IMG/VR virus record: IMGVR_UViG_3300033233_000014
Coordinates: 1 to 64,000 of that record
Direction: 5' to 3' (one strand)
DNA length: 64,000 nt
Source: a virus
The position numbers and the translations under genes are program-made. Shown here piece after piece: positions 5,224 through 59,205 of this stretch. Every line of letters begins with the position of its first letter. The stretch's first letter is position 1. The notes beneath the pieces were generated by a model, which worked only from the letters and a program-made list of their open reading frames with translations, searched no databases and was not told where the DNA came from.

Positions 5224-5489
5224 GCCGAGGCTCCCGCCTGGTGGCGCGCCTGCGCCATTTCCCGGATCTCCCGCAGGTACTGACTCACGCGCTCCCGCTC
5301 CTCTGGCGCCAGGCTGATCTGATCCATGAGCCCCGCGAGCGCCGCGCATGTCGCATGGACATGCCGCAACCTGGCCTCGGCGCGCTCCTTGGCGACGGCC
5401 GCCCGGAGGCGCTGGTCACTGCCGCACCGCGGGCAGGCGCGATCATCGAAGCCCTCCCGATCCCCGCACACCGGGCACAGCACGATCAC
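5220..5489 (-). CDS. Small Zn-ribbon protein
   Basis: CPVC...CPRC; GTGA overlaps at both ends. Confidence 0.55.
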   Translation of the reverse strand: MIVLCPVCGDREGFDDRACPRCGSDQRLRAAVAKERAEARLRHVHATCAALAGLMDQISLAPEERERVSQYLREIREMAQARHQAGASA

Positions 5490-7270
5490 GTCGGGCACTC
5501 GCGCTGGATCTTTCCCCCGCCGACGAAGGTCAGGTTCACGCGCCCCTTCACCGGGATCTGGTTCGGTTGCATGGGCACGTTGGCGAACTTCTTGCAGGTC
5601 TCGAAGGACGCCCGATCTCCCGCCTTGGGTGCGCCGCTGGCACAGGTGATGGTGAACGTCACCTGGCCCTGATCCGAGACATACTCCACGCCGACGGTGC
5701 CGGTGTTCGCCTGCAGGCCACTCACCGTTCCCCGGACAGTGAACGTCGTCGGCGACGTGAAGATCACCGTCCACGTCTCGCCCTCGGCCTTCGTCCCGAC
5801 GAGGACGCGACTGAACTCGCAGCCCGCCAGGCCCACTTCCTTTCGGGGTTCCGGCTGGCACGTCACCTCGACGAAGTCGACGTGATCGACGCCCGGCACG
5901 TTGTCCACGAGCGCGAACAGATCCGAGAGGAAGATCGACGTGCCGAAGCCGATGAAGTCGCTGTCGAGGCCGAGGAACTGGTCGATCTGCCCGAGCGTCT
6001 GATCGGCCACGCTCTCGGTGCCGAAGTTGTTGGCGATCGTGACCGTGCCCTCGATGTCGACCTTCACGTACTCCGGCTCGACGATCACGAGGCACGTCCC
6101 GGCCATCTTGCGTCCGTCGAAGAAGGCGAGGAGATCCGCCTGGAGCTGGCTTGACGGCGAGCCCCCACCACTCGGGGAGATGGTGAGGCTGATCGTGCAG
6201 CAGCACGGCACCCCGCGCTGCACCGACGTGCCGCCGACTTCGATGGTGGCCTTGTCCACACCCGGGAAGCTCTCGGCGAGCGCCTTCCAGTCGGCCGGCG
6301 TCACCGCCCGGTTGAGCGCCTGGAAGGACTGCGGCCCGAGGCGCTTGCCCTCGTCGATGGACATCTCGTCCTCGCCGCCGCTGGCCTGCTTCGGGTTCGT
6401 GACCGCCAGGGTGACGGGATCGCCGTTGAACGTGATCGTCGCGTTGACGGTCGTGATGGTGCCCGGTGCGACGTTGCCCCGCAGCCCGCCCCCGACGCGG
6501 AACTGCGCCCGGATCGTCGCGCCGGTGTCGGGGATCTTCCCCTGGTTGTTGTCCCCGAAGAACACCGTGGTGATCCCCGTCTCCTCCTCGAGTTGCGACG
6601 TGAAGTGCTTGTCGTCCGGCCCGCTCCCGACGAACGTCTGGACGTCAATCCAGAGTTCCTCGCCGATGCCCTCGTCGATGAAGAGCTGGCGCGTCCCGTC
6701 GATGATCCGCAGGGCGCGCAAATCGAACCGCTGCCGCTCGATGCCCTCGCTGAGCCCCACCTCTTCGCTCTCCGTCTGCCCCTCCACGGCCGGCGCGGTC
6801 GCGAACAAGTCGCCCGCCACGATTACCACGTCCTGCGTTGTCTCGAAGAAGATCGGCTCCTCGGTCGCGTCGGCGGTCGTCTGCAACGAGGTGCCCGCCG
6901 GAATCAGGAGATCCCCGGCCAGCGCCTCCTGCAGCGAGAACTCGACATCCACCGACGCCGGCACGGCGCTGCGCAACTCGAAGGCGATGAGCCGAAGGTG
7001 GTTCGCCACGCTCCGTCGCGTGATGGCCGTCGCGAGGAACGCCTCGTTCGCCATCCGGTCGAGGTAGAAGTGCAGCACGTCCGCCACGTAGGCGGTGAGC
7101 CGCTGCAGCACGATCCCGAAGTCGGAGAGGTTGTGATCCGTCCACTCCGGCGAGAAAAACGGGATCGCTCGCACCATGTCCTGGGAGATCGCCTCGAAGT
7201 CCCGCGACGTGTAGTCGATGGGCGGAATTCTCTGAGAGAGCCGCGTGAACGTCGTGACAGGAGTGGCCAT
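5486..7270 (-). CDS. Baseplate J/gp47-like wedge protein
   Basis: IDYTSRDF, WTDHNLSDFG, FGD...GKIP, GGEDE, RAVTPADW motifs. Confidence 0.9.
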   Translation of the reverse strand: MATPVTTFTRLSQRIPPIDYTSRDFEAISQDMVRAIPFFSPEWTDHNLSDFGIVLQRLTAYVADVLHFYLDRMANEAFLATAITRRSVANHLRLIAFELRSAVPASVDVEFSLQEALAGDLLIPAGTSLQTTADATEEPIFFETTQDVVIVAGDLFATAPAVEGQTESEEVGLSEGIERQRFDLRALRIIDGTRQLFIDEGIGEELWIDVQTFVGSGPDDKHFTSQLEEETGITTVFFGDNNQGKIPDTGATIRAQFRVGGGLRGNVAPGTITTVNATITFNGDPVTLAVTNPKQASGGEDEMSIDEGKRLGPQSFQALNRAVTPADWKALAESFPGVDKATIEVGGTSVQRGVPCCCTISLTISPSGGGSPSSQLQADLLAFFDGRKMAGTCLVIVEPEYVKVDIEGTVTIANNFGTESVADQTLGQIDQFLGLDSDFIGFGTSIFLSDLFALVDNVPGVDHVDFVEVTCQPEPRKEVGLAGCEFSRVLVGTKAEGETWTVIFTSPTTFTVRGTVSGLQANTGTVGVEYVSDQGQVTFTITCASGAPKAGDRASFETCKKFANVPMQPNQIPVKGRVNLTFVGGGKIQRECPT

Positions 7271-7273
7271 CGC

Positions 7274-7720
7274 TTACCCCACCGTGATCTGTCCACGCAC
7301 GCGCATGTCGGGCGTGATGTAGAACGGGTAGACGAGGTTTCCGATCTGCTGCGTGGAGATGATCCGGTAGAAGATCTGTGAGTCGAGCACCCCGTCCTTG
7401 GCCCGATCGAGACTGACCGTGACCGAGAGCACCTGGATACGTCGCTCCCCGTTTCGCAAGGACTCGGTGATCTCCATCTGCAGCGCCGTCGCGGTGAGGT
7501 TGTCAATGGGGCTGAAAACCAGCCCGCGCAGATCCGAGCCGAATCCGCGGTCGATCACCCGGCTGCCGAGCCGCGTTCCGAGGATCTGGCGGATCGACAT
7601 GTTGATCAGTTCGGCGGACTCGGCCGGCGCCACACCTACCTGCCGCTGGATTCGCCCACGCGACGTGAAGCGGAAGGGGAACGCCCAACCCTTGCCGAGG
7701 ATGTCGACCCGAATCGCCAT
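7274..7720 (-). CDS. gp25/GPW-like baseplate (sheath initiator) protein
   Basis: LGKGWAFPF...IRQILGTRLGSRV...FGS...NLVYPFY. Confidence 0.9.
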   Translation of the reverse strand: MAIRVDILGKGWAFPFRFTSRGRIQRQVGVAPAESAELINMSIRQILGTRLGSRVIDRGFGSDLRGLVFSPIDNLTATALQMEITESLRNGERRIQVLSVTVSLDRAKDGVLDSQIFYRIISTQQIGNLVYPFYITPDMRVRGQITVG

Positions 7721-8206
7721 CTAGCGCCGCACTCTCTCTTCTGGCTTCGGACTGCAGACCGTCTGCAGTCGGTGGCTGATCGCCAGCAAGCGCTCGTTCA
7801 GGAGGCACGCCGTCTCCTGCAGCACCTGCAGCGTCTCCATCTTACGCTCGGCGTCGTACTTCTTCTCCAACTTCCCCGTGGGCCGCAAATCATCCATCTC
7901 GGCCTTGAGCGCGCCCCGCCAGGTGGTGAGCATGCCGCTGAGGAGATGCATCTCGATGTCCTCGGGGTGCGCGCCGAGCCACGTCTCGATCTGCGTGAGC
8001 GCGACCTCGATGTTGTTGACCTTGTGCCCGATCGCCTCCCGCCGCGCGTTGATCCCGTCGATCTCGTGTGTAAGCGAGATCAGGAACCGCTGGAGACTCG
8101 CCAGGCGTTCCGGCGCCGTGCTGTCTTGGAGATCGTGCGCGACGCGCAGGACGTCGTCCCGCGCGGCTTCGCTCAGAGAAGTCAGGAAGTCGGTGAGTCC
8201 GGCCAC
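7721..8206 (-). CDS. Hypothetical coiled-coil protein
   Basis: Fills the gap between PAAR and gp25; GGAG RBS. Confidence 0.6.
   Translation of the reverse strand: MAGLTDFLTSLSEAARDDVLRVAHDLQDSTAPERLASLQRFLISLTHEIDGINARREAIGHKVNNIEVALTQIETWLGAHPEDIEMHLLSGMLTTWRGALKAEMDDLRPTGKLEKKYDAERKMETLQVLQETACLLNERLLAISHRLQTVCSPKPEERVRR
7750..7770. repeat. 21-bp palindrome copy 1 (GACTGCAGAC-C-GTCTGCAGTC)
   Basis: Perfect 10-1-10 inverted repeat; also at 23644, 45656 and 60569. Confidence 0.85.
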
Positions 8207-8209
8207 GGT

Positions 8210-8518
8210 TTACTCCATAAGAATGCTCGACGACCCGTCGTCGATGATGGTGGCTCCTCAGTTGAAGGAGTCCCCGACGAAGGCCACCGAAAGCCCATCC
8301 ACCTTGACGACTTGCGTCCCCGACCCGGCCTGCACCGGATTCGGGGCGTGAAACTGCGGGCCCGGGAGCACATGCGGCGCGATGAGCGTCGGCCCGACCA
8401 GCGCCAGGCCGCGCCCGCCAGGCCCGGACACGGTGGGGCTGCCCGGCCCGGCGATGAGCGCGCCGTGCGTCGTCGGCATGCCGATCAGCGCCACCTGTCG
8501 TCGCAGTCCAAGTGCCAT
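8210..8518 (-). CDS. PAAR-like spike tip protein with in-frame UGA (8258-8260); candidate selenoprotein or readthrough
   Basis: TTHG...PH...H...VDG..VAFVGDSFN*GATIIDDGSSSILME; the UGA is where PAAR has GDxxxCG; the extension ends 3 nt before the next start. Confidence 0.75.
8227..8244 (-). promoter_or_regulatory. Candidate bacterial SECIS hairpin
   Basis: UCGACGA-CGGG-UCGUCGA starting 13 nt after the in-frame UGA; G at loop position 2. Confidence 0.5.
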
Positions 8519-8973
8519 CAGGGACTCCCCGCCAGGCCATCCAAGATACCCGAGAAGAAGGTCGTGTTCTTCCCCGTCGTGATGAGATTGTCGGTCACTT
8601 CTTGGGTGGATACCGAGAAGGCCGGCAGCACCAGCAACTGGCTCTCAATCGAGGCCTGCTCCGTCACGAGGAGAGTCTTGCGGGCGAGGATCGTGTCCCG
8701 CCACGAGACGGCCTCGGGATTCGTCTGACCCACCAGGAAGTTGAGGATGATGTCGAGGCAGGGAATCTCGGCGAGAATCGCGGCGAGCCGCACCTGCAGT
8801 CCCTCGATTCGCACGTTGATGGCAGCCGAGAGGCTGAACGACGCCTCGAGCTTCGGCACGTCGATCTCGACCGAGAACGACGCAACGACTTGTTCCATGC
8901 AGGCGCGGAACTCGGCGTCCTGCAGCAGTCCCTTCCAGAAATCCTCGTCTTCGAGTAGCAGCAGCAGGGACAT
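8518..8973 (-). CDS. Hypothetical baseplate-region protein
   Basis: Tightly packed between the spike and PAAR genes. Confidence 0.6.
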   Translation of the reverse strand: MSLLLLLEDEDFWKGLLQDAEFRACMEQVVASFSVEIDVPKLEASFSLSAAINVRIEGLQVRLAAILAEIPCLDIILNFLVGQTNPEAVSWRDTILARKTLLVTEQASIESQLLVLPAFSVSTQEVTDNLITTGKNTTFFSGILDGLAGSP

Positions 8974-8976
8974 TGG

Positions 8977-10065
8977 TTAGTTCCCCGCTGGCAACGGCGG
9001 ACACGCCGGCGCCTGGGGCACCGGCGGGCACGACGGCTCCGAAGGCAACACAGGCGGCGTCTCCGGGTTCGGCGGTGTGGCCGGCGAGCCGCCGCCGCCG
9101 AGGCTGATCGAGGATGCGGCCACGGAGAAGAGGCCGCCCGCCACCAAGGCGAGTTGCGCCGCGGCGTTGAAGTCCACGGCGCCGGCCACGATGGTCTTGT
9201 GGTTCCCCAGCACGATGGTCGTGAGATCGCCGATGATCGTATGGGTGAGGTTCGCCTGGTTGACCCGCGATTCCTCCCCTGTCACGAACGTCTTCCGTTG
9301 CCCCTGGATGGAGCGCTGCTCCTCCCCATCCACGACGAGACGGCGCGCCTGCTTGATGTGCTCGGTGGCGTCCCCGTCAACGCCGACGTGCCGGCTCCCG
9401 ACAACATGCACGCGATCATCCTGCTCGACGAGGCGGTACGCCTTCCCGTTCACGCGCACCGAGAGCCCGTCCTGATCCAGCTCGAGCCACGAGCCGATGT
9501 TCTGCCCGAGGTAGATCTGCACACGCGGCCGTCCCGGCGTGTCGTCCACCTCGACGGTGATGCCGTTGTTCTTGGTCTTGAGCACCTGGTTGTGCGGGTA
9601 CTGCGGACCGCCGTGAACGAGCAGCGGCGAAGCCGGCTGACACTGGCTCGCGCCGGCCGCGTCCACGAAGCCGTCCTCGCCCTTCGGCGCGCCGACGCTC
9701 GGATCATCCTTGTAGCACGTCCGCCCCTCGGATCGGGTGAGCGCCGGCGGCTCGGGCGAGGCATTCTTGGGATGCGCCCACCATGTCCCGGTGACGAGCG
9801 GGCGGTTCACGTCGCCGGACTCGAACTCCACGAAGACCGCCGTGCCAACCGGCAGGCCCTGGAAGTGGCCCGTCTCCGGGAGCCCGCCGTAGGACGGGCC
9901 CGTGGACGCCCAGTCGGTGGTCATGTCGCGCCCGAGGACTTCGGGCAGGCGCACCTTCACGCGCCCCAGGCGGCGCGGATCATCATTGTCGGCCACGATG
10001 CCGCGGTACCGCCCCCACCACCGCTTCGGGGCATAGGGGCCAGTCTGGGGGCCGGACTCAGACAT
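8977..10065 (-). CDS. Baseplate spike (gpV/gp5/VgrG-like)
   Basis: YRGIVADNDDPRRLGRVKVRLP, P.VG..VFVEFESGD..RP; C-terminal beta-helix repeats. Confidence 0.9.
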   Translation of the reverse strand: MSESGPQTGPYAPKRWWGRYRGIVADNDDPRRLGRVKVRLPEVLGRDMTTDWASTGPSYGGLPETGHFQGLPVGTAVFVEFESGDVNRPLVTGTWWAHPKNASPEPPALTRSEGRTCYKDDPSVGAPKGEDGFVDAAGASQCQPASPLLVHGGPQYPHNQVLKTKNNGITVEVDDTPGRPRVQIYLGQNIGSWLELDQDGLSVRVNGKAYRLVEQDDRVHVVGSRHVGVDGDATEHIKQARRLVVDGEEQRSIQGQRKTFVTGEESRVNQANLTHTIIGDLTTIVLGNHKTIVAGAVDFNAAAQLALVAGGLFSVAASSISLGGGGSPATPPNPETPPVLPSEPSCPPVPQAPACPPLPAGN

Positions 10066-46268: not shown

Positions 46269-46345
46269 TGGTACCGAGGGCGGGAGTCGCACCCGCCTTA
46301 GCCTCCTTATGAGGGAGGTGCCTCATGCTGCTCGGCCACCTCGGC
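46269..46345 (-). tRNA. tRNA-Met(CAT) (elongator or Ile2)
   Basis: Cloverleaf, loop CTCATAA, CCA. Confidence 0.85.
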
Positions 46346-46420
46346 TGGTGGAGTGGGCCGGTTTTGCGCCGACGTGCCCCGGTCTTCAGCCGGGTGCTCT
46401 ACTGATTGAGCTACCACTCC
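46346..46420 (-). tRNA. tRNA-Phe(GAA)
   Basis: Cloverleaf, loop CTGAAGA, CCA. Confidence 0.85.
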
Positions 46421-46427
46421 AAAAAGA

Positions 46428-46566
46428 TCGGAACCGACAAGGGATGCCGAGAGAACGAAGCGCTCTGCCGTTGAGCTACGGCACCGGGTTGCCCCGGCAC
46501 CGGCGGGAATCGAACCCGCACCTCTCTTTTGTGAAAAGATGTACTCCCGACTGCATCCGGTTCCGA
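46428..46566 (-). ncRNA. yrlA: Y RNA, YrlA type (Y1)
   Basis: Terminal stem CCGGATG...CTTGTCGG enclosing T arm, closed acceptor stem, then D arm; near the TROVE gene; U-run after. Confidence 0.85.
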
Positions 46567-46583
46567 CCAGCGATGTCAAAAAA

Positions 46584-46677
46584 GTAGGGGCCGACAAGGG
46601 TTGCCGAGAGAACCCGGGGTTGCCCCCGGAGATTTACTACAGATGTAAATGTACTCCCGACTTCATCCGGCCCCTAC
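46584..46677 (-). ncRNA. Y-RNA-like gene (Y2), no tRNA domain
   Basis: Same CCGGATG..GTCGGGAGTACAT / CTCTCGGC..CCCTTGTCGG stem; two inner hairpins; U6 after. Confidence 0.8.
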
Positions 46678-47115
46678 CGATGAACGCATCTCTTGAAGGA
46701 TTCGATAGCGGACGTGCCTGAGTTGCTTCGCCGTCTTGCGTCGATGGCAGTTGGCGCATCGCACGTCACACTTCTCGATCTCCTCGATCAACCTCTCCTT
46801 TCTTACCCGTGAGACTAGAAGGCTCACGGTCATGATCTTCTTCTCTGGATCTCGATGATCGAAGTCAAGGACAAGAGGATCCGGCTCTCCGCAGTCCACG
46901 CACGGATGCACGAGGAGGTACGCAACAACAAATCTCCGGTTCCTCTCAACAAGCTTCTGCTTCGACTTGTTGCCCTTCCAGACGTAGTACGCTCGGTTGC
47001 TTCGGTAGTGGGTCTTCTTGTATTCGAGCCGGCACCTCCGGCACTTCCCGTCCTTCGTCTTGTTCTTTCCGACGCGAGGCCGGCCACACTTCCGACACGG
47101 CCTCGTCTTCTGCAC
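46663..47115 (-). CDS. HNH endonuclease
   Basis: PCVDCGE.DP.VLDFDHRDP...EIEKCDVRCANCHR. Confidence 0.88.
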   Translation of the reverse strand: MQKTRPCRKCGRPRVGKNKTKDGKCRRCRLEYKKTHYRSNRAYYVWKGNKSKQKLVERNRRFVVAYLLVHPCVDCGEPDPLVLDFDHRDPEKKIMTVSLLVSRVRKERLIEEIEKCDVRCANCHRRKTAKQLRHVRYRILQEMRSSVGAG

Positions 47116-47130
47116 GAAGCCAGTCTACGC

Positions 47131-47183
47131 TACGGGAGAGAATGCCGCAAGGCAAGATTCTCCCCGAGCATCCGGCCCCTACC
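47131..47183 (-). ncRNA. Partial Y-RNA-like element (5' arm plus hairpin)
   Basis: GGTAGGGGCCGGATG identical to the Y2 5' end; lacks the CTTGTCGG strand. Confidence 0.45.
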
Positions 47184-47189
47184 CGTTCG

Positions 47190-48902
47190 TTACTCCTCCT
47201 TCACCGGCTCCGCCGGCTCCACCGTCTCCTCGTGCTTCTCCTCCGCCTCGCCCGTGTCCGTGGCCGCGAGATCGAGCGCCTCGACCTTCGCCAGCCAATG
47301 CTCGGCCGCCAGCGTGCCGCGCGCGAACTCGGCCAGGATCTCGAACACCGCGTCCGAGAACCCGCCGATGTTGAGCGTGTCCGGCTGCTCCGGCGCCTGC
47401 ACCGTCGTGTACGCCTGCAGGTTGATGCAGACCAGCCGCGCCTTCGGGTTCCGGCTCTTGAAGGTCGCCCACTCGTCGGCCACACCGCTGCTCTGCCCGT
47501 AGAGTCCGGTGCCCGCGTAGGCGTGCGTGTCCACCCACGACTCCATGTCGGAGACGATGATGACGAGGTCGCCCTTGCCCTTCTTGCCGTTGATCATCCG
47601 GAGCACCGAGGCGCAGTCCGTCCCGCCCCCGCCGTACTTGGCGAGCTTCTGGGCGTTCGTGAGCACCGTGTCCCGCGGGTTGAGCGTCGCCGTGTGCGGC
47701 ACGGTGTCGAACGGGATGACCTCGGCCTCGTGGTTCTTCCGCAGGATGGCCGACGCGATGAGCGCCGCCACGTCCACGCACCGCGCCACCGTCGTCGCCC
47801 CCACGCCCCGCGCGCCCGTGATCGGCGAGGACATCGAGCCCGACACGTCGACGCAGACGTAGACCTTCCCCTCAAGCGCCGGCACGTTCTCCGTGGCGAC
47901 CTCGAGCGCATCCTGCAGCGCCTCCGTGACCGCCTTCGGGATCCGCCCCTCGATGAACTGGCCCTTCGCGTCCCGCACCTGCCCCGTGGTCGCGAGATAG
48001 GAGACGAGCAACTGGTACGGGAACACCTTGGCCTTCCGAATCGTCTCCGGGTCGCGGAGCTTCCCCGCGATCTCCGCGGTGAGCCCCTCGACCTCGAAGA
48101 CGCCCTTGCGGGCGTAGTTGTTGAGGTTGATCCGGGTCTGGTGGAACCAGCCGCGCCGGGCCACCGCCACCCAATGCTCCCGGGTGAGCGGCAGGCTGGT
48201 CAGCATCTGCATCGGCACGTCCGGCGCGTCCTTGCCCGCCGGATCCTTCTTGAACGCCTCGTACTCCCGGATGGCCGCTGGCAGCCGCGGATCGTCGCCC
48301 GCGACCTTCCCGATGAGCCAGCCGTAGAGCGCCGTCGCCGCCTCGCCCATCGGCTTCGGCCGGGCCAACTTGATGATGTCCCCGAGCGACGGGTTGGTGC
48401 CCACGCTGTCCCGCAGGAGGACGTGGGGCCGCCGGACTGCGAACCAGGCGTGGATGAGCCGCCGGACGACGCCCTTGAGCGCCCGGTGCTTGCCCATCTT
48501 GCCGCTTCGCAGGATCTGGACGACGTTGCGGAGCATCTTCCCGTTCGTGACAACGTGCGGCCACGCCCGCTCGAACCACTTCGCGCCCTCCGCCCCCTGG
48601 TTGCGGAGCCACGCGAGCAGGACGGCCGGCATGTCCTTCATGAAGCCGCGCTGCCGGGCGTAGACCGCCACCTTGGCGACGAACTCGGGCGTCACGTCGA
48701 CGTGCTTGAGCAGGATGAGGACGGTGTCGAGTTGCGCCTCGCCGCTGGCGTAGAACGCCTCGCCGAGGCAGCCCGTGGCCGCCAACTGGGCGAGCGCGTG
48801 CCGCGGGGTGAGCGTGTACGCCAGCCCGCCGGCCTCGTTGCGATCGGTCGTCTCGGGCGGGGTGGCCCCCCGCCGGGACTGGAACAGGGACTTGTTTGCC
48901 AT
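47190..48902 (-). CDS. rsr: Ro60/TROVE-domain RNA-binding protein
   Basis: NEAGG.AY, LAQLAATG, FMKDMPA, KVFPYQL, vWA DVSGSM, GGTDC, VSDMESW, IGGFSDAVF. Confidence 0.95.
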   Translation of the reverse strand: MANKSLFQSRRGATPPETTDRNEAGGLAYTLTPRHALAQLAATGCLGEAFYASGEAQLDTVLILLKHVDVTPEFVAKVAVYARQRGFMKDMPAVLLAWLRNQGAEGAKWFERAWPHVVTNGKMLRNVVQILRSGKMGKHRALKGVVRRLIHAWFAVRRPHVLLRDSVGTNPSLGDIIKLARPKPMGEAATALYGWLIGKVAGDDPRLPAAIREYEAFKKDPAGKDAPDVPMQMLTSLPLTREHWVAVARRGWFHQTRINLNNYARKGVFEVEGLTAEIAGKLRDPETIRKAKVFPYQLLVSYLATTGQVRDAKGQFIEGRIPKAVTEALQDALEVATENVPALEGKVYVCVDVSGSMSSPITGARGVGATTVARCVDVAALIASAILRKNHEAEVIPFDTVPHTATLNPRDTVLTNAQKLAKYGGGGTDCASVLRMINGKKGKGDLVIIVSDMESWVDTHAYAGTGLYGQSSGVADEWATFKSRNPKARLVCINLQAYTTVQAPEQPDTLNIGGFSDAVFEILAEFARGTLAAEHWLAKVEALDLAATDTGEAEEKHEETVEPAEPVKEE

Positions 48903-48983
48903 CGGTCTATCCTCCTTCTCTGGGATTTACAGAAGTGTACACGAAGGGAAACACTCAATCCACTCGAAAGGTTCATCCGAATC

Positions 48984-49058
48984 TGGGGTGACCGGCGAGA
49001 GTCGCACTCGCGCGGCGAGAGTCACAGTCTCGTGCCCTACTGTTAGGCGACGGTCACC
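48984..49058 (-). tRNA. tRNA-His(GTG)
   Basis: Loop CTGTGAC; G-1:C73; CCA. Confidence 0.85.
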
Positions 49059-49080
49059 ATCGTCGCGTCGATCCGCGGGC

Positions 49081-49155
49081 TGGAGCTGAAGGTGGGATTT
49101 GCACCCACATAGCCCGCCTTACGAGAGCGGTGCATCGCTGTTCTGCCACTTCAGC
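49081..49155 (-). tRNA. tRNA-Thr(CGT)
   Basis: Loop CTCGTAA; CCA. Confidence 0.85.
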
Positions 49156-49158
49156 ATC

Positions 49159-49232
49159 TGGGGCCCAAGGGCGGGATCGCACCGCCGCTGGCGAGGTACA
49201 GGCTCGCCGTGCTGCTGCTACACCACTCGGGC
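49159..49232 (-). tRNA. tRNA-Thr(TGT)
   Basis: Loop CCTGTAC; CCA. Confidence 0.8.
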
Positions 49233-49308
49233 TGGAGCCACCGGCGGGAATCGGACCCGCGACCTCCTCCTTACCAAGGAGGCGCTCTTCCATCTGAGCT
49301 ACAGCGGC
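49233..49308 (-). tRNA. tRNA-Thr(GGT)
   Basis: Loop TTGGTAA; CCA. Confidence 0.9.
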
Positions 49309-49382
49309 TGGCTGCCCCGGTACGATTCGAACGTACACGGCGAGGGTCAAAGCCTCGCGGCCTACCATTAGCCGACAGGGCA
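49309..49382 (-). tRNA. tRNA-Gln(TTG)
   Basis: Loop CTTTGAC; U1:A72; CCA. Confidence 0.9.
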
Positions 49383-49478
49383 GAAGTCGCCGAAGACAGT
49401 CGGGCGCGCTGGACTGCGGGGTATCCCTCCCTCGACTCCCGCTTCTCGGCGGAAGCCGAGGTAGGGATCCCGCAGATC

Positions 49479-49553
49479 TGGAGCGGCCAGCGGGTTTCGC
49501 ACCCGCGACTTCCAGGTTGGGAACCTGGCGCTCTACTACTGAGCTACGGCCGC
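49479..49553 (-). tRNA. tRNA-Gly(CCC)
   Basis: Loop TTCCCAA; U73; CCA. Confidence 0.9.
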
Positions 49554-49735
49554 ATGCATGCGCCAGAGACAGCTGGCGCCCCCTGGCCCGCGTATCGCCG
49601 CAGCGCCAACGAGAGCCCCTCGTGAGCACCGCTACGCATCACCGTCGTGCGTTGGCCCCGTGTGAATCTTGGATCGTGAAGTCGACGGCCGTCAGCGAAC
49701 ACTTGGGGGTTCCAAGGTTGCTGACCCCACAGAAC

Positions 49736-49809
49736 TGGAGCGGGCCGCGAGAATCGAACTCGCGTCCTCGGGTTGGAGGCCCGACGCCTTGCCACTAGAC
49801 GAGGCCCGC
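49736..49809 (-). tRNA. tRNA-Gly(TCC)
   Basis: Loop CCTCCAA; CCA. Confidence 0.85.
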
Positions 49810-49869
49810 ATCGTGCGCCGGCCTGCCTCAGCATGCCAGCGCCTCTCGAGACAGCGAGAGCCTGAAGAG

Positions 49870-49960
49870 CCGCCTCTCCCCCGACTGTTCTGCCGTTAAA
49901 CTACTCGCGCGTCTACTGCACAGGGGAGGATTCGAACCTCCATCTTTCTAAGGGGGACGG
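49870..49960 (-). ncRNA. Permuted tRNA-like module A (T arm before D arm)
   Basis: GGAGGTTCGAATCCTCC, closed stem, TAGTTTAACGGCAGAAC, enclosed by TCCCCC/GGGGGA. Confidence 0.65.
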
Positions 49961-49964
49961 GATC

Positions 49965-50039
49965 TGGAGCGGGTAGTGGGTTTCGCACCCACGGCCTCCA
50001 CCTTGGCAAAGTGGCGCTCTACTACTGAGCTACACCCGC
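49965..50039 (-). tRNA. tRNA-Gly(GCC)
   Basis: Loop TTGCCAA; CCA. Confidence 0.9.
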
Positions 50040-50046
50040 GATCTTC

Positions 50047-50132
50047 TGGCGGAGGGGCGGGGACTCGAACCCCGGACGGCGTGAGCCGCGCTCGCCTTCC
50101 AAGCGAGTTCCTCGTCCGGCCGGACCCCCTCC
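50047..50132 (-). tRNA. tRNA-Ser(GGA)
   Basis: Loop TTGGAAG; long variable arm; G73. Confidence 0.85.
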
Positions 50133-50274
50133 ACTCGACCAGGGACCGGAGTTCCGATGAAAGGAAGCCTGCCTCGGCTGGTCGAACCCGAGGCTTGCCC
50201 AGGCGTCGCGCCTGATCGGATTGTCGGGCACTTCCGGCGCACCCGACGGCGGGCCGAAGGGAATGCCCGGCCGC

Positions 50275-50360
50275 TGGCGGAAGAGGAGGGAATCGAACCC
50301 CCACGGGAGTTACCCGGACGGTTTTCGGGACCGTTGCGCTAGCCGTTACGCCACTCTTCC
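50275..50360 (-). tRNA. tRNA-Ser(CGA)
   Basis: Loop CCCGAAA; long variable arm. Confidence 0.85.
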
Positions 50361-50364
50361 GAGG

Positions 50365-50440
50365 TGGTGGACCCGGCGGGAGTTGAACCCGCGATCTCCG
50401 GAATGCCATTCCGGCGTTCTTCCATCTGAACTACGAGCCC
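50365..50440 (-). tRNA. tRNA-Ala(GGC)
   Basis: Loop ATGGCAT; G3:U70. Confidence 0.9.
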
Positions 50441-50516
50441 TGGTGGACCTGGCCGGACTCGAACCGGCGATCTCCGCGTTGCGAACGCGGCGCTCTTCCA
50501 ACTGAGCTACAAGCCC
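50441..50516 (-). tRNA. tRNA-Ala(CGC)
   Basis: Loop TTCGCAA; G3:U70. Confidence 0.9.
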
Positions 50517-50519
50517 ATC

Positions 50520-50594
50520 TGGTGGACGCACCCGGCTTTGCTCCGGGCACCCGACCGTGCAAGGGTCGTGTGATGCTGACTTCACCATGCGCCC
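50520..50594 (-). tRNA. tRNA-Ala(TGC)
   Basis: Loop CTTGCAC; G3:U70; T loop AGCAAAG. Confidence 0.8.
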
Positions 50595-50684
50595 AGCGGA
50601 TGCGTGCTACCGTTACACCACAAGACCCGTGCTCCCGAAGGAGTCGAACTTCTTGGCGGGAGTCGAACCCGCACTTCATCCTTG
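50595..50684 (-). ncRNA. Permuted tRNA-like module B (opened at the anticodon loop)
   Basis: GGATG-AAGT-T arm-CAAGA[UUCG hairpin]TCTTG-TG-D arm-G-CATCC. Confidence 0.7.
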
Positions 50685-50759
50685 TGGAGATCCCGGCAGG
50701 ACTTTCACCTGCGTCGTTCACCCTTTGCAGGGGTGCGCCTGATTCTCGGCCACGGGATC
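50685..50759 (-). tRNA. tRNA-Cys(GCA)
   Basis: Loop CTGCAAA; U73; T loop TGAAAGT. Confidence 0.8.
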
Positions 50760-50763
50760 GTGC

Positions 50764-50837
50764 TGGCAGGAGCGCAGGGAGTTGAACCCTGGACCTCAGA
50801 TTTGGAGGCTGAGATGTTTCCGTTACACCACACTCCT
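50764..50837 (-). tRNA. tRNA-Trp(CCA)
   Basis: Loop CTCCAAA; G73. Confidence 0.88.
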
Positions 50838-50842
50838 TCTGC

Positions 50843-50918
50843 TGGCGACCTCGGCAGGACTCGAACCTGCAGCCTCCGGGGTAGAAACCCGGCGCCGTTC
50901 CTGTTCGGCTACGAGGCC
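50843..50918 (-). tRNA. tRNA-Arg(TCT)
   Basis: Loop TTTCTAC. Confidence 0.85.
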
Positions 50919-50921
50919 ATC

Positions 50922-51006
50922 TGGTCTTCGGGGGGAGAGTCGAACTCCCACGGGTTTCCCCACTAGGTTCTGAGCCTAGCGCGACTGCCAGTTCCGCCAC
51001 CCGAAG
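50922..51006 (-). tRNA. tRNA-Leu(CAG)
   Basis: Loop CTCAGAA; long variable arm. Confidence 0.85.
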
Positions 51007-51010
51007 ATGC

Positions 51011-51085
51011 TGGTACGGGCACGGGGTATCGATCCCCGTTTCTCGCGCTGAAAACGCGATGTCTTAGCCAGTAGACGATGCCCGC
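51011..51085 (-). tRNA. tRNA-Glu(TTC)
   Basis: Loop TTTTCAG. Confidence 0.85.
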
Positions 51086-51088
51086 ATC

Positions 51089-51171
51089 TGGTCCGCGCGG
51101 CAGGAGTCGAACCTGCACGCCGAAGCACCTGTTCTTGAGACAGGCGGGTCTGCCATTTCCCCCACGCGCGG
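51089..51171 (-). tRNA. tRNA-Leu(CAA)
   Basis: Loop CTCAAGA; long variable arm. Confidence 0.85.
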
Positions 51172-51175
51172 ATGC

Positions 51176-51269
51176 TGGCGGAGAGGATGGGTGTCGAACC
51201 CACCGTCGCCGTTGAGGCGACCCTGGTTTAGCAAACCAGTCCAGCTAACCAACGATCTGGCTCCTCTCC
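51176..51269 (-). tRNA. tRNA-Ser(GCT)
   Basis: Loop TTGCTAA; long variable arm; extended D arm. Confidence 0.85.
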
Positions 51270-51272
51270 ATC

Positions 51273-51358
51273 TGGTGCGCGAGAGAGGACTCGAACCTCC
51301 ATGCCTTTCGGCACAAGACCCTCAATCTTGCGTGTCTACCAAATTTCACCACTCGCGC
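51273..51358 (-). tRNA. tRNA-Leu(GAG)
   Basis: Loop TTGAGGG. Confidence 0.92.
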
Positions 51359-51434
51359 TGGTCGGCCGAGGAGGGTTCGAACCTCCGACCTTCTGCGTGT
51401 AAGGCAGACGCGCTTCCGACTGTGCCACCGGCCG
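51359..51434 (-). tRNA. tRNA-Val(TAC)
   Basis: Loop CTTACAC. Confidence 0.88.
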
Positions 51435-51442
51435 ATCTTCTC

Positions 51443-51516
51443 TGGCGGTGCGTACGGGAGTTGAACCCGTACTAGCAGATCGACAATCTGCCGTGCTGCC
51501 GCTACACCAACGCACC
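51443..51516 (-). tRNA. tRNA-Asp(GTC)
   Basis: Loop TTGTCGA; G73. Confidence 0.88.
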
Positions 51517-51519
51517 CGC

Positions 51520-51594
51520 TGGTTGCCCCGCGAGGATTCGAACCTCAGATTTCCTGGTTCAGAGCCAGGCGTCCTACCGTTGGACGACAGGGCA
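51520..51594 (-). tRNA. tRNA-Gln(CTG)
   Basis: Loop CTCTGAA; U1:A72. Confidence 0.9.
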
Positions 51595-51595
51595 G

Positions 51596-51668
51596 TTGGA
51601 GCGGCGGGAGTTGCACCCGCGTCTCGACTGTATAGGAGTCGCGCCTGAGACTACTCGGCCACGCTCCG
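51596..51668 (-). tRNA. tRNA with TAT anticodon (Ile-UAU); C1xA72; CCA not encoded
   Basis: CGACT-CCTATAC-AGTCG anticodon arm; full cloverleaf. Confidence 0.7.
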
Positions 51669-51744
51669 TGGTCGTTCGGGAAGGAATCGAACCTTCCTGA
51701 CCTACCTTATCAGGGTAGTGCCTGAACCACTAGGCTACCGAACG
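51669..51744 (-). tRNA. tRNA-Ile(GAT)
   Basis: Loop CTGATAA. Confidence 0.9.
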
Positions 51745-51917
51745 AGAGCGACTCGGGCCGGCTTTGGCAGGCACTTGGGTAGCGCCGCACAGACCGGCGG
51801 GGTGAAACCCGGATCAGCGCCAGCAGAGCCGTACGGACGTGCCGCCGTTGATGCTGGACCACCACTCTACGATGAGGCTTCGGTCTGATGACCGCGCCTT
51901 CCCCTTCTCCGCGTCGC

Positions 51918-51994
51918 TGGTAGATCCGATAGGACTTGAACCTATGGCCTCCTGCGTGTGAAGCAGGCGCTCTGCGCAACTGAGCTACGGATCT
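51918..51994 (-). tRNA. tRNA-Val(CAC)
   Basis: Loop TTCACAC. Confidence 0.9.
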
Positions 51995-51997
51995 ATC

Positions 51998-52131
51998 GGT
52001 GACGACGCAAAGGATGTCGTTGCCGTCCGCACCGGATCGATGAAGCCGGCGTGTCGCTAGGCACCGGAGCAGGCGCACTGTCCATCTCCGGCCGAGTCTC
52101 TGCCGAGGCATCGTCCTCGTTCGTCGTCACC
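51998..52131 (-). ncRNA. Unassigned rod-like ncRNA
   Basis: Perfect 10-bp terminal stem GGTGACGACG/CGTCGTCACC filling the gap between two tRNAs. Confidence 0.55.
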
Positions 52132-52209
52132 TGGTCGGACTGGCCGGATTCGAACCGGCGGCCTCCTGAACCCCATTCAGGCGCGCTAGCCAGCCTGCGC
52201 TACAGCCCG
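52132..52209 (-). tRNA. tRNA-Pro(GGG)
   Basis: Loop ATGGGGT. Confidence 0.92.
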
Positions 52210-52214
52210 AGCGA

Positions 52215-52280
52215 GAACGGCCCGACAAGGGACGCCGAGAGTTCAGTTTAGATGTACTCCCAGCAGCATCCGGATCGTTC
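52215..52280 (-). ncRNA. Minimal Y-RNA-like gene (Y3)
   Basis: CCGGATGCTGCTGGGAGTACATC, short loop, CTCTCGGCGTCCCTTGTCGG. Confidence 0.8.
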
Positions 52281-52282
52281 CC

Positions 52283-52358
52283 TGGTCGCGCGGGTCGGGT
52301 TCGAACCGACACCCTTCGGCTCCCAAAGCCGACGCTCCACCGCTTGAGCTTCCGCACG
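52283..52358 (-). tRNA. tRNA-Pro(TGG)
   Basis: Loop TTTGGGA. Confidence 0.88.
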
Positions 52359-52362
52359 CACA

Positions 52363-52480
52363 CGAGGCCCCGGACAAGAGAGTCGAGAGGAATGCCTTCC
52401 AGAGGTTGCCCTCTCAGGCGAGCCCTTGCGGGCTTCAAGATTTGAACTTGGTGTACTCCCAACAGCATCCCGATGCCTCG
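52363..52480 (-). ncRNA. Y-RNA-like gene (Y4) with a T-loop hairpin and two GCAA hairpins
   Basis: CGGGATG..GTTGGGAGTACAC / CTCTCGAC..CTTGTCCG with compensatory changes. Confidence 0.8.
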
Positions 52481-52481
52481 C

Positions 52482-52559
52482 TGGTCGGGCTAGCAGGATT
52501 TGAACCTGCGGTCTCTTGCTCCCGAAGCAAGCGCGTTGACCAGGCTACGCTACAGCCCG
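52482..52559 (-). tRNA. tRNA-Pro(CGG)
   Basis: Loop TTCGGGA. Confidence 0.92.
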
Positions 52560-52562
52560 AAT

Positions 52563-52714
52563 GAAGACGACCGACAAGAGAGCCGAGAGAACCGGGTTGC
52601 CCCGGAATCCTGGCGCTCTACCGTTGAGCTACCGCACGATCTATTCGCGCGAGTGAGGAGTCGAACCTCACGACCTCCAGGGCCATGTACTCCCAGCGGC
52701 ATCCGGCCGCCTTC
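52563..52714 (-). ncRNA. yrlA: Y RNA, YrlA type (Y5)
   Basis: Shared stem, T arm, closed acceptor, D arm, plus GCAA hairpin. Confidence 0.85.
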
Positions 52715-52789
52715 TGGTGTTCCGGGCAGGAGTCGCACCTGCAGCCGTCTCGTTAGGACCGAGTCGCGCTTCTGTTGCGCCACCGGAAC
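52715..52789 (-). tRNA. tRNA-Arg(CCT)
   Basis: Loop GTCCTAA. Confidence 0.78.
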
Positions 52790-52794
52790 ATTGC

Positions 52795-52872
52795 TGGTTG
52801 CGCGGGCGAGACTTGAACTCGCAGCCTTCGGCTTCGGAGGCCGACGCTCTATCCAAGTTGAGCTACCGCACA
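52795..52872 (-). tRNA. tRNA-Arg(CCG)
   Basis: Loop CTCCGAA. Confidence 0.9.
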
Positions 52873-52876
52873 GCAG

Positions 52877-53491
52877 TTACAGACCCGCGAGCATCGCGGG
52901 GGAAAAGACCGACTCAGACTTGACCTTCCGACGAACCACTCGGAAGCCCGCCTTGCGGGCCGCCCGATCCTTGCGGCAGTCGACTTCCCGCTGCCTCGGA
53001 TCCTTGTGGTACGACCCGTCGAACTCCACGATCACCTTCACGTCGAGAAGCGCGAGGTCGAAGACGAACGCCCCAATCTCGAACTCGAACTCGAACCGCC
53101 TTCCGGCCGCAACGAGCGTCTCCCGAAGCGCCGCGTACTTCCACTCCTCCCGGCGCTTGAGCGTCTCGGCCGGCGAGAAGAGGTTGTGTGCGTTCTCAAG
53201 CCCGGAGCGACGCGCAGCCTCGCGCCGCTCCTCGCTCACGCTCCCCTTGCTGGCACAAGCACGAGAGCAGAACCGCTTAGACCGACGGCGGGTGGACGTG
53301 CTGAACACGATTCCGCAGACCGGGCACGTCATCTCGAATGTCTTCGCCTTCTTCGGCGCGTTGCCCGCGACCGCTGTGCATGAGAGTCCGCAGAAGAACC
53401 GGCGGCCAAGCCTTCGGGCACGGTTGACTTCCCCGATCCGCTTCTCGACTTCCTTCCCACAGCGGGCGCACCGAACAATGGTAGTCGCCAC
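52877..53491 (-). CDS. Vsr/DUF559-type endonuclease with Zn-finger repeats (homing-like)
   Basis: CARCGK, FFCGLSC, CPVCG, FCSRAC; FVFD...VIVEFDGSYH...D..KD...GFRVVR. Confidence 0.85.
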   Translation of the reverse strand: MATTIVRCARCGKEVEKRIGEVNRARRLGRRFFCGLSCTAVAGNAPKKAKTFEMTCPVCGIVFSTSTRRRSKRFCSRACASKGSVSEERREAARRSGLENAHNLFSPAETLKRREEWKYAALRETLVAAGRRFEFEFEIGAFVFDLALLDVKVIVEFDGSYHKDPRQREVDCRKDRAARKAGFRVVRRKVKSESVFSPAMLAGL

Positions 53492-53543
53492 GCCCCCATC
53501 GTAGCCGCGATGTAGGCGTGGCGCAATACCCGATGTAGGCGAT

Positions 53544-53916
53544 TGGAGGCGGCGAGATTTGCACTCGCGTCTCAAAGACCTTCGCCCGAAGCCTCTACGC
53601 GCGTGTCCCTGCTTCTCGTCTTTCCTCGGGCGCAGGACAGCCCATCGTCAGGCGTCTCTTGCCAAGCACCCAGTCTTTCCTGGGTGTCAGACCCTGGTGC
53701 CTTCCCTGCGCCGGGCCGTGCGCAAGGCGGGGTTGCTCGAGGTCGGCTAGGCCGCGAGCCGCAGGCCCCGAGCCGCGTGAGCGGCCCGGAAGTCCACGGT
53801 GGTCACCTTGAGGTGACTGGCTGATGAATTGTGGTCCGCTTGTTGACGGGGCCTGCTGACCAACCCCGGCGCGCATCCCCGGACTCCGATCTCCGATCGA
53901 AAACTAGTTCGCCCCC
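53544..53916 (-). ncRNA. ssrA: tmRNA
   Basis: GGGGGCG/CGCCTCC-A with G3:U70, TTCGA motif, T arm, tag ORF 53821-53747 ending LRLAA*. Confidence 0.92.
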
Positions 53917-53920
53917 ATGC

Positions 53921-53996
53921 TGGTACTCCCGAGGGGATTCGAACCCCACGTTTCCACCGTGAGAGGGTGGCGTCCTGCCGGCTAGACGACGGGAGC
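53921..53996 (-). tRNA. tRNA-Glu(CTC)
   Basis: Loop CTCTCAC. Confidence 0.9.
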
Positions 53997-54020
53997 ATTG
54001 CGGCGAGGCGGCGCCGCGCC

Positions 54021-54095
54021 GGAGAGGGCCACGAGAGTTGCACCCGCGCGCCAGCAAGCATGGCATGCCTGCTGGCGTCATCTCTGATCCTTCCC
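54021..54095 (-). ncRNA. Aberrant tRNA-like RNA with a 13-bp hairpin replacing the anticodon arm
   Basis: CGCCAGCAGGCAT-GCC-ATGCTTGCTGGCG, then T arm GCGGG-TGCAACT-CTCGT; imperfect acceptor. Confidence 0.45.
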
Positions 54096-54131
54096 TGGTG
54101 GATCCGGTGGGACTCGAACCCACGCGAACCC
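54096..54131 (-). ncRNA. tRNA-Ala minihelix (acceptor stem plus T arm only)
   Basis: GGGTTCG-C-GTGGG-TTCGAGT-CCCAC-CGGATCC-ACCA. Confidence 0.7.
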
Positions 54132-54137
54132 GTGTTA

Positions 54138-54213
54138 TGGTTGCCCGGGAGGGATTCGCACCCTCAGCCTCGTCCTTAAGAGGGACTTGCTCCGCTAGTT
54201 GAGCTACCGAGCA
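54138..54213 (-). tRNA. tRNA-Lys(CTT)
   Basis: Loop CTCTTAA. Confidence 0.85.
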
Positions 54214-54225
54214 TCTGAAAGTCTC

Positions 54226-54301
54226 TGGCTCCACGGGTAGGGCTCGAACCTACATCATCCTGGGTAACAGCCAGGCGCTCAGCCAGTTGAGCTACCGTGG
54301 A
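54226..54301 (-). tRNA. tRNA-Asn(GTT)
   Basis: Loop CTGTTAC; G73. Confidence 0.9.
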
Positions 54302-54306
54302 CCGGA

Positions 54307-54381
54307 TGGTCACGCCGAGAGGAGTCGAACCTCTTTGGCAGGATCCGTAGTCCTGTGCCTGATCCGATCGGCCACGGCGTG
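54307..54381 (-). tRNA. tRNA-Arg(ACG)
   Basis: Loop CTACGGA. Confidence 0.85.
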
Positions 54382-54427
54382 AATGCAGACGCGGTGTTCG
54401 CGCACCGCGCCCACTCGAACGTCTCGT

Positions 54428-54443
54428 CGAACTGTCAGAGAAC
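54428..54443 (-). promoter_or_regulatory. boxA-like antitermination motif
   Basis: GTTCTCTGACAGTTCG in the leader, after a hairpin; near-identical copy at 54985. Confidence 0.5.
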
Positions 54444-54488
54444 CTCGGTCAAGTCGCGCCTCGGCGCTCGACCACGCACGAAACCTGG

Positions 54489-54517
54489 ATTCTACCACAT
54501 CAGCGAATCTTTGTCAA
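54489..54517 (-). promoter_or_regulatory. sigma70-type promoter TTGACA-17-TAGAAT (extended -10)
   Basis: Consensus -35, 17-nt spacer, TG motif; points into the tRNA array. Confidence 0.85.
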
Positions 54518-54522
54518 GACGC

Positions 54523-54610
54523 TGGTGGGCCGTGGTGGAGTTGAACCACTTGCTCGCCGCTCCCCATATCAGAGCGACCGCTTTACAGGCGGCCGGGGAG
54601 AACACGTCCC
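54523..54610 (-). tRNA. tRNA-Tyr(GTA), atypical (no D stem)
   Basis: Loop CTGTAAA; D region reduced to ~10 nt; long variable region; A73 CCA. Confidence 0.7.
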
Positions 54611-54683
54611 GGTGGGCCCGGAGGGAGTCGGACCCTCGCCTTCCGGTTAAAAGCCGGCTGCTCGGCCGCTGAGCTACGGACCC
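54611..54683 (-). tRNA. tRNA-Lys(TTT)
   Basis: Loop CTTTTAA; ends ACC abutting tRNA-Tyr. Confidence 0.85.
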
Positions 54684-54753
54684 GCGTGGACTACGCGGCC
54701 CGTTTCGCCAGCGCGGCGCCGGCCCCGGTATAGCCCACCGCCGCGGCGCGCCC

Positions 54754-54828
54754 TGGTTGCCGCGGCTGGGGTCGAACCAGCAGCCCCCCGCATGTCAAAC
54801 GGGTGCTCTTCCGCTGAGCTACGCGACA
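54754..54828 (-). tRNA. tRNA-Val(GAC)
   Basis: Loop TTGACAT. Confidence 0.88.
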
Positions 54829-54836
54829 CCCGATGC

Positions 54837-54911
54837 TGGTAGCGGGGGCGAGGATCGAACTCGCGAACTCCAGCTTATGAGGCTGGCATGATACCGCTTC
54901 ACCACCCCGCG
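54837..54911 (-). tRNA. tRNA-Met(CAT), initiator-like
   Basis: CGCGGGG start with C1xU72 mismatch; loop CTCATAA. Confidence 0.85.
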
Positions 54912-58022: not shown

Positions 58023-58526
58023 CTACGCCACCGCCCGGACGAGTTCCGACCCGCGCTCGTTCCGCACGATCTCCCACCCGACGGGGACGCCGGCCTCCAT
58101 CGCCAGGGCGAACCCCGGCTGCCACTCGGCATCGCCCCCGTCTGTCACCACGCAGAGCGCCTCCCCGAGGTGGTACTTGAGCGCCACGAGGCACGCCTGC
58201 ACCACCACGTCGTAGGGCGCCCGCTCCGTCTTGCAGAAGGCGAAGCACCGACCGTCGCCGTGTCCCTGTTCCTGGCGGTACAGCGCCCGCGTCCGCAGGA
58301 TTGCGTCGGCCTCCCGCTCGATCTCGAAGGGCTCACACCCCTGCTCCCCGTTGAACGCCACCCGCGTACCGTTGGCAACAGGCTTCCGCTGGTGGTCGTA
58401 CTTCCCCACCAGCCGGATCCCGCGCGCTCGCGCTGCCGCGAAGACCTTGGCGCAGTCCGCCGCCGCCGCTCGGAACGCCCCCGCGTCGAGATCGGGCGTC
58501 CGGTACCAGTAGTTCGTGTAGCCCAT
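58023..58526 (-). CDS. Conserved hypothetical phage protein (MGYTxYW / FCKT family)
   Basis: MGYTNYW...FNG...FCKTERAPYDVVV.ACL. Confidence 0.7.
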   Translation of the reverse strand: MGYTNYWYRTPDLDAGAFRAAAADCAKVFAAARARGIRLVGKYDHQRKPVANGTRVAFNGEQGCEPFEIEREADAILRTRALYRQEQGHGDGRCFAFCKTERAPYDVVVQACLVALKYHLGEALCVVTDGGDAEWQPGFALAMEAGVPVGWEIVRNERGSELVRAVA

Positions 58527-59143: not shown

Positions 59144-59162
59144 GTTGTCCTCCATGTCCCAA

Positions 59163-59191
59163 ATCATACCCGATGCCTGTACTTTTGTCAA
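59163..59191 (-). promoter_or_regulatory. sigma70-type promoter TTGACA-17-TATGAT
   Basis: Near-consensus, intergenic. Confidence 0.85.
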
Positions 59192-59205
59192 GGTGGAATC
59201 CAGAA

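Follow-up and report, generated by a model that had tools for sequence, protein, structure and literature searches.

The gene considered here encodes a PAAR spike-tip protein in the baseplate module of an uncultured high-GC sediment phage. The stretch of DNA that was analysed, hereafter the window, is 64 kb in length and forms the first part of a 111,629-bp IMG/VR virus record, which has a GC content of 68% and is 73% complete by CheckV estimate; the public runs that contain this phage are sediment metagenomes only. The phage encodes a portal, a capsid, a contractile-tail baseplate module and 41 tRNA genes (46.2–54.9 kb). The genes of the module lie on the minus strand in the order gp5-like spike, 151-aa ORF, PAAR, 161-aa ORF, gp25 and baseplate J, with the following features:

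8977–10065, minus strand: gp5/VgrG-like spike protein of 362 aa (Pfam Phage_base_V, 1.5e-16; Gp5_trimer_C, 5e-05, under its cut-off)
8518–8973, minus strand: 151-aa ORF with no Pfam family, between spike and PAAR; its TGA stop overlaps the PAAR start ATG
8261–8518, minus strand: PAAR spike-tip gene up to the UGA, 86 codons, MALGL...VAFVGDSFN (Pfam PF05488; H18, H49 and H57 conserved)
8258–8260, minus strand: in-frame UGA, the proposed Sec87 codon, at the position where the GDxxxCG motif has its Zn-ligand Cys
8213–8257, minus strand: 15-codon read-through tail, GATIIDDGSSSILME, predicted last strands of the PAAR cone; ended by TAA at 8212–8210
8227–8244, minus strand: candidate bacterial SECIS hairpin, 7-bp stem UCGACGA/UCGUCGA, loop CGGG
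7721–8206, minus strand: 161-aa ORF with no Pfam family, GTG start at 8206, beginning 3 nt after the TAA of the tail
7274–7720, minus strand: gp25-like baseplate wedge protein (Pfam GPW_gp25, 2.7e-14), used as bait for related phages
5486–7270, minus strand: baseplate J-like protein (Pfam Baseplate_J, 1.5e-09)

The 362-aa spike is the protein that the PAAR would cap. The ribosome-binding site (GGAG) of the 161-aa ORF sits inside the last codons of the PAAR tail, and orthologues of this ORF also come after PAAR in two sets of related loci described below (L009 and the L047 group). An accessory role in the baseplate or spike is possible for the two ORFs that flank PAAR (8518–8973 and 7721–8206). 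Elsewhere on the minus strand, the window encodes a DUF6011-containing protein (58526–59632) and, at 60588–63221, a protein of 877 aa that contains an N6/N4 DNA methylase domain.

The in-frame UGA and the tail that follows it

An earlier, sequence-only reading of this DNA had proposed that the PAAR ORF is interrupted by a TGA at the codon for a metal-binding Cys, that its frame continues for 15 codons beyond this point to within 3 nt of the next start, and that a short hairpin follows the stop; selenocysteine (Sec) was suggested as the inserted residue. Re-reading of the sequence bears out the description in full. On the minus strand the codons GTC GGG GAC TCC TTC AAC precede the TGA (8260–8258), the tail runs from GGA GCC ACC to CTT ATG GAG and is closed by TAA (8212–8210), and a single codon, ACC, separates this second stop from the GTG start at 8206. 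The hairpin, UCGACGA-CGGG-UCGUCGA, begins 13 nt past the UGA exactly as described. Because the PAAR ORF and the tail share one frame, a frameshift is ruled out.

The TGA itself was checked against an independent assembly. Over positions 8000–8700, the window is matched without differences by a Logan contig from the probable source run, at a mean k-mer depth of approximately 224 and with no other letters; an assembly slip is thereby ruled out as the origin of the TGA, the confirmation being at contig level and compatible with minor variants. A further run, X2 (share 0.18), was set aside as evidence: its pieces are 34–41 nt in length with 4–8 mismatches each, and the gene is not covered.

Profile and model comparisons indicate that the tail is needed to complete the PAAR fold. 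With the UGA read through, the protein scores 38.1 bits against the Pfam PAAR profile (PF05488), versus 23.9 bits for the truncated form of 86 residues; the gathering cut-off is 27 bits. In a phmmer search of the PDB, residues 46–98 align with c1882 (4JIW) and VCA0105 (4JIV), and the column of the UGA corresponds to the Cys of GDAIDCGG and GDAVDCGG, respectively. PAAR tips of this type carry a Zn atom held by three His and one Cys, and in the PAAR of EAEC the equivalent residue, C74, is needed for Zn content and function (PMC10715212). The three His named in the sequence-only reading were located as H18 (in TTHG), H49 (in APH) and H57 (in FHAP). Every one of the 20 aligned PAARs has H18 and H49, and H57 is invariant inside the window's own clade; in the putative apical metal site of the window's PAAR these three candidate ligands are thus conserved, with UGA in the column of the fourth, the Cys.

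An AF2 model of the read-through protein has a pLDDT of 86 and a pTM of 0.79, and confidence is high over the region that contains the tail (pLDDT 91–94 at residues 81–100, and 77 for the last two). Foldseek matches this model over its full length (97–102 columns, probability 1.00, TM 0.67–0.78) to 9F4B, 4JIV, 4JIW and 4KU0, which are the PAARs of Klebsiella phage KP1, Vibrio cholerae (VCA0105) and Escherichia coli (c1882), and T4 gp5.4; the PAARs of phiKZ (gp163.1, 6P1Z) and P1 (9VYI) match over 92–96 columns with a TM of 0.60–0.73. These solved proteins have the same conical fold of approximately 100 residues as the model, and they share with the window's PAAR the GDxxx[C]G motif and conserved His at the metal-ligand positions. 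The gene is found in a baseplate cluster, with one ORF between it and the gp5/VgrG-like spike gene upstream. Assignment to the PAAR family is based on the profile score above cut-off, the conical fold of the model and the location in the baseplate module beside the spike gene. What sets the window's PAAR apart is that the codon for its single metal-ligand Cys is UGA, whereas the solved relatives named here all have Cys.

Cysteine and UGA among related PAARs

Homologues were sought in 5.8 billion proteins by a word-indexed search and in 1.84 billion representatives by an exhaustive HMM search. Across these two protein collections, only eight homologues of the window's PAAR subfamily were found, with identities of 53–94% (P0001–P0009). 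All eight terminate in ...GD(S/A/V/T)(F/Y)x, exactly one residue short of the Cys column, the position of the stop being read from the truncated proteins rather than from DNA. A scan of metagenome contigs gave at least one confirmed locus among the matches listed, termed L009, a JGI contig with the same gene order and a PAAR of 55% identity. L009 has TGC at the Cys column, followed by the tail GAQIIDDGLSNIFVE, in which 10 of 15 residues are identical to those of the window. Between these two sequences, pS is 0.68 and pN 0.20 in the tail, and pS is 0.67 and pN 0.15 in the 22 codons upstream; the tail therefore evolves as coding sequence, purifying selection within the window's own clade being drawn from this one DNA pair together with the eight truncated proteins. 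Searches of viral contigs with PAAR peptide and DNA patterns gave no relative, and the gp5-like query likewise gave none; two scans of genome contigs returned only canonical Acinetobacter PAARs and chance matches, and the INPHARED phages hold no relative of the window's PAAR.

Among the viral contigs, only gp25 led to relatives. With this gene as bait, 45 related IMG/VR loci were recovered, and their PAAR genes were located by HMM on read-through translations. A second clade emerged in which TGA occupies the same column, in eight contigs that represent four distinct PAARs (L036/L047, L046, L041–44/48 and L045) with 32–34% identity to that of the window. The TGA is followed in these genes by a tail of the form GAQII(P/T/L)(G/S)PC(D/V)PNT(S/E)S(S/T)D and then a stop, with the ribosome-binding site and ATG of the orthologous next gene 4–13 nt past that stop. 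In pairwise comparisons of the tail, pS is 0.17–0.84 and pN 0.06–0.23, there are no indels and the second stop is conserved; in the gene body pS is approximately 0.5 and pN 0.12–0.21, the same ratio as in the tail, where pN/pS is approximately 0.3. In three of the four distinct genes, the tail is closed by another TGA, which lies 17 codons past the first (L047:1960–2013, L041:1953–2006 and L045:1961–2014), and thus one codon has two meanings within one mRNA. The sole INPHARED match to this clade is from Aurantimonas phage AmM-1, at 38% identity.

The PAARs of the second clade (L047:1726–2010, L046:1726–2010, L041:1719–2003 and L045:1727–2011) are without the third His column, represented in the window by H57. 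What they have instead is HxH and CDC motifs, and the tail after the UGA contains one more Cys (PC[DV]P). Their metal site may be built differently.

Pairing of UGA with Cys in homologues had been put forward as a check on the sequence-only reading, and it is found across the loci: TGA in the window, L036/47, L046, L041–44/48 and L045, and TGC in L009, L033, L034/35/39/40 and L038. The window's closer gp25 relatives (L033, L034/35/39/40 and L038) and all of the distant ones have TGC or TGT at the Cys column, which includes 11 distinct distant PAARs (23 loci). In a maximum-likelihood tree of the PAARs, the genes with a stop at the Cys column form two clades with support of 98/96 and 97/96. The window's clade has the Cys-type L009 inside it, and the tree requires a minimum of two changes of state (Sec/Cys switches). 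Pairing of Cys with UGA, with frequent switching between them, is a criterion of SECIS-independent searches for selenoproteins (PMC13188914). The GC content of the phages that share the module is 57–60% in L033, L038, L040, L045 and L046, 63% in L047, and 68–69% in the window, L009 and L041. This span of 57–69% probably reflects diverse hosts, which fits repeated Sec/Cys switching.

The candidate hairpin and the decoding machinery

In the consensus model, a bacterial SECIS element has a stem of 4–16 bp and a loop of 3–9 nt whose first two positions include a G (mostly N-G-[G/U]), with 16–37 nt from the UGA to the loop and a folding energy of −7.5 kcal/mol or lower (PMC13188914). Hairpins at the corresponding position in TGA-type genes are as follows:

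Window, minus strand: stem UCGACGA (8244–8238), loop CGGG (8237–8234), UCGUCGA (8233–8227); perfect 7 bp
L046, L041 and L045: stem 6–8 bp, loop CGUGY, 22 nt from UGA to loop, −8.4 to −9.4 kcal/mol; fit the consensus
L047: A.C mismatch in the stem, loop CGUGC, 22 nt, −2.1 kcal/mol; fails the perfect-stem test (L036/L047 form)

The hairpin of the window, with 20 nt between UGA and loop and −8.2 kcal/mol, also fits. The claim of a SECIS-like hairpin gains from the comparison between gene types: a hairpin that fits the consensus lies 20–22 nt after the UGA in four of the five TGA forms, versus none of the 14 distinct Cys-type genes. For the second clade, the consensus structure predicted by RNAalifold is the clade's own hairpin, and one double change, from U-A to G.U, occurs in it. 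Covariation had been named as a further check, and this double change is what speaks for it; covariation is otherwise thin, and the stem overlaps conserved codons (PGPCDP). Hairpins of this kind are also not rare in the window's genome, where a fitting one follows 12% of random positions, 12% of Cys codons (5.7% under a stricter loop rule) and 16% of TGA ORF ends (8% under the stricter rule). Folding z-scores against shuffles were not significant for regions of 46–71 nt, and Rfam gave no meaningful match at 8100–8400. The candidate element is consistent with SECIS function and rightly placed in two independent clades, and on sequence grounds it offers weak evidence, supporting rather than decisive.

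UGA is otherwise an ordinary stop in this phage. The 199 gene-like ORFs of the 111.6-kb record end in TGA (99), TAG (81) or TAA (19), in agreement with the earlier view that any recoding is site-specific, and the TGA of PAAR is the only one in the record that precedes protein-like in-frame sequence. None of the 41 tRNAs of the phage has a UCA anticodon, which rules out a suppressor tRNA of its own. The genes selA, selB, selD and tRNA-Sec were not found in the window's record (73% complete), and selB and tRNA-Sec, the two sought there, were not found in five related phage records; any Sec machinery must therefore be that of the host.

The tRNA genes form an array on the minus strand (46269–54911) in which most codon families are covered, and which includes adjacent genes for tRNA-Cys(GCA) and tRNA-Trp(CCA) at 50685–50837. 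Within the array, ARAGORN reports a permuted 'tmRNA' (49737–50457) that overlaps tRNAs and is probably spurious, and a 'tRNA-???' whose anticodon has four bases (cggg; 46494–46578, minus strand); the latter may be artefactual, or may be a tRNA-like RNA whose loop has 8 nt. Adjoining the array is a gene for a 570-aa Ro60/TROVE-like protein (47190–48902, minus strand; Pfam vWA_Ro60, 4e-14). The nearest Atlas clusters of this protein are mostly from Pseudomonadota, with some phage clusters, a weak hint of a host in that phylum. Matches to the baseplate J protein are below 33% identity and come from phages of many different hosts. Among 401 Pseudomonadota and 401 Actinomycetota genomes sampled, none had a PAAR whose Cys column is occupied by a stop; two survey rows marked '1 TGA' were rejected, the stops being upstream of the gene.

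Proposed selenocysteine recoding and its alternatives

The sequence-level tests that were run are all in favour of the earlier Sec interpretation, which is supported to that extent, and we consider it probable that the UGA at codon 87 is recoded as Sec by the SelB complex of the host, with the hairpin acting as SECIS. Features by which bacterial selenoproteins are recognized are present in the window's PAAR: a UGA aligned to Cys, purifying selection on the UGA and the tail, and, as the weak element, a hairpin of bSECIS type. In the mechanism that we propose, the gene would encode a full-length spike-tip protein of 102 residues. SelB-GTP carrying Sec-tRNA(Sec), supplied by the host and recruited by the hairpin 20 nt downstream, would decode UGA87; Sec87 would stand in for the single Cys that holds the apical metal together with H18, H49 and H57, and the tail of 15 residues would finish the PAAR fold. 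Ribosomes that stop at the UGA would yield a product of 86 residues without the ligand and the last strands, which probably cannot cap the spike. Since each spike trimer is capped by one PAAR, recoding of low efficiency would be sufficient for a burst. The production of infective particles would then need a Sec-competent host and selenium.

The best-surviving alternative is read-through without selenium, either programmed or leaky decoding by a near-cognate tRNA, Trp-CCA or Cys-GCA, or a SelB-type system that inserts Cys; a mixture of truncated and full-length protein would result, and the hairpin would only slow termination. Conservation and selection require that the UGA is read through, and do not require Sec, and the phage itself encodes the two tRNAs in question side by side. 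The statistical weakness of the hairpin, and the lack of Sec genes in the phage records searched, point in the same direction. This explanation would, however, leave the position of the stop untied to a Cys, whereas the UGA falls on the column of the metal-ligand Cys in two clades and alternates with Cys codons only, a pattern diagnostic for Sec. Trp is the usual residue inserted at UGA read-through in bacteria and could not ligate the metal. The phage has no tRNA with a UCA anticodon, and the geometry and loop (N-G-G/U) of the hairpin match the SelB-type consensus. Selenium-free read-through is on balance unlikely, while retaining some real weight.

A second alternative, which we regard as distinctly improbable, takes the UGA as a true stop: PAAR would function as a protein of 84–97 residues, and the next 45–50 nt would be a conserved non-coding spacer, involved for instance in translational coupling or forming an RNA element. 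Gene callers do predict the truncated form in eight of eight database homologues, and the ribosome-binding site of the next gene is inside the tail. Against this, the truncated PAAR falls under the Pfam cut-off and has neither the essential Cys ligand nor the last strands of the cone, and the tail is homologous to translated sequence of Cys-type orthologues; its pN/pS is approximately 0.3, indels are absent from it and the second stop is conserved. Finally, a recent nonsense mutation or pseudogene, a sequencing or assembly error and global reassignment of TGA have nothing beyond the bare stop codon in their favour, and these are excluded to the point of negligible probability by the identical independent contig at approximately 224x, by retention of the stop across lineages (pS approximately 0.5, with identity down to 32% between the two TGA clades) and by TGA being the commonest stop in a genome of 68% GC.

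Recoding at the PAAR codon resembles the bacterial Sec-UGA/SECIS system (SelB; prototype E. coli fdhF) in that an in-frame UGA is aligned to the Cys of homologues, and that the ORF contains, 16–37 nt past the UGA, a hairpin with a G among the first two bases of its loop; Sec and Cys are often interchanged among close relatives in both, with TGA still a stop elsewhere. It differs in that the gene belongs to a lytic-type phage without Sec genes of its own, and that the product is a structural part of the virion, not an oxidoreductase, in which Sec would ligate a structural metal. Known prokaryotic selenoproteins are almost all cellular redox enzymes, and we know of little precedent for Sec as a purely structural Zn ligand. 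Phages with stop codons recoded genome-wide (TAG or TGA reassigned, with suppressor tRNAs) also read a stop as sense in a late structural gene; the PAAR case, in contrast, concerns one codon in one gene, with no suppressor tRNA among 41 and TGA as the main stop elsewhere. A review of recoding names only poxvirus glutathione peroxidases as viral selenoproteins, MC066L of molluscum contagiosum and GPx4 of fowlpox (PMC8310308). In these, as proposed for PAAR, the UGA of a virus gene is read as Sec by host machinery; they are, however, redox enzymes that eukaryotic viruses captured from cells, and their SECIS is of the eukaryote type, whereas PAAR is a structural phage protein with a bacterial-type hairpin. 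The words 'PAAR', 'phage' and 'virus' do not occur in a 2026 inventory of prokaryotic selenoproteins (PMC13188914), and no phage selenoprotein, or selenium-containing protein of a phage particle, was found in the searchable literature.

On present comparisons, and with slightly more reserve than for the recoding of codon 87, we think it likely that a family of PAAR spike tips uses Sec as a structural apical metal ligand, that the production of infective particles is tied to the selenium metabolism of the host, and that the codon has switched repeatedly between Sec and Cys as phages moved between Sec-competent and Sec-lacking hosts. Such genes are systematically misannotated, since gene callers cut them at the UGA, as in all eight of the database homologues. 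If the interpretation is correct, PAAR would be the first phage-particle selenoprotein and an uncommon case of Sec in a structural, non-redox role, with selenium selected for metal binding or the mechanics of the tip and not for catalysis. The infectivity of these phages would be linked to the sel genes and selenium supply of their hosts, and a Sec codon in a phage could serve as a marker of host range, because the host must be Sec-competent.
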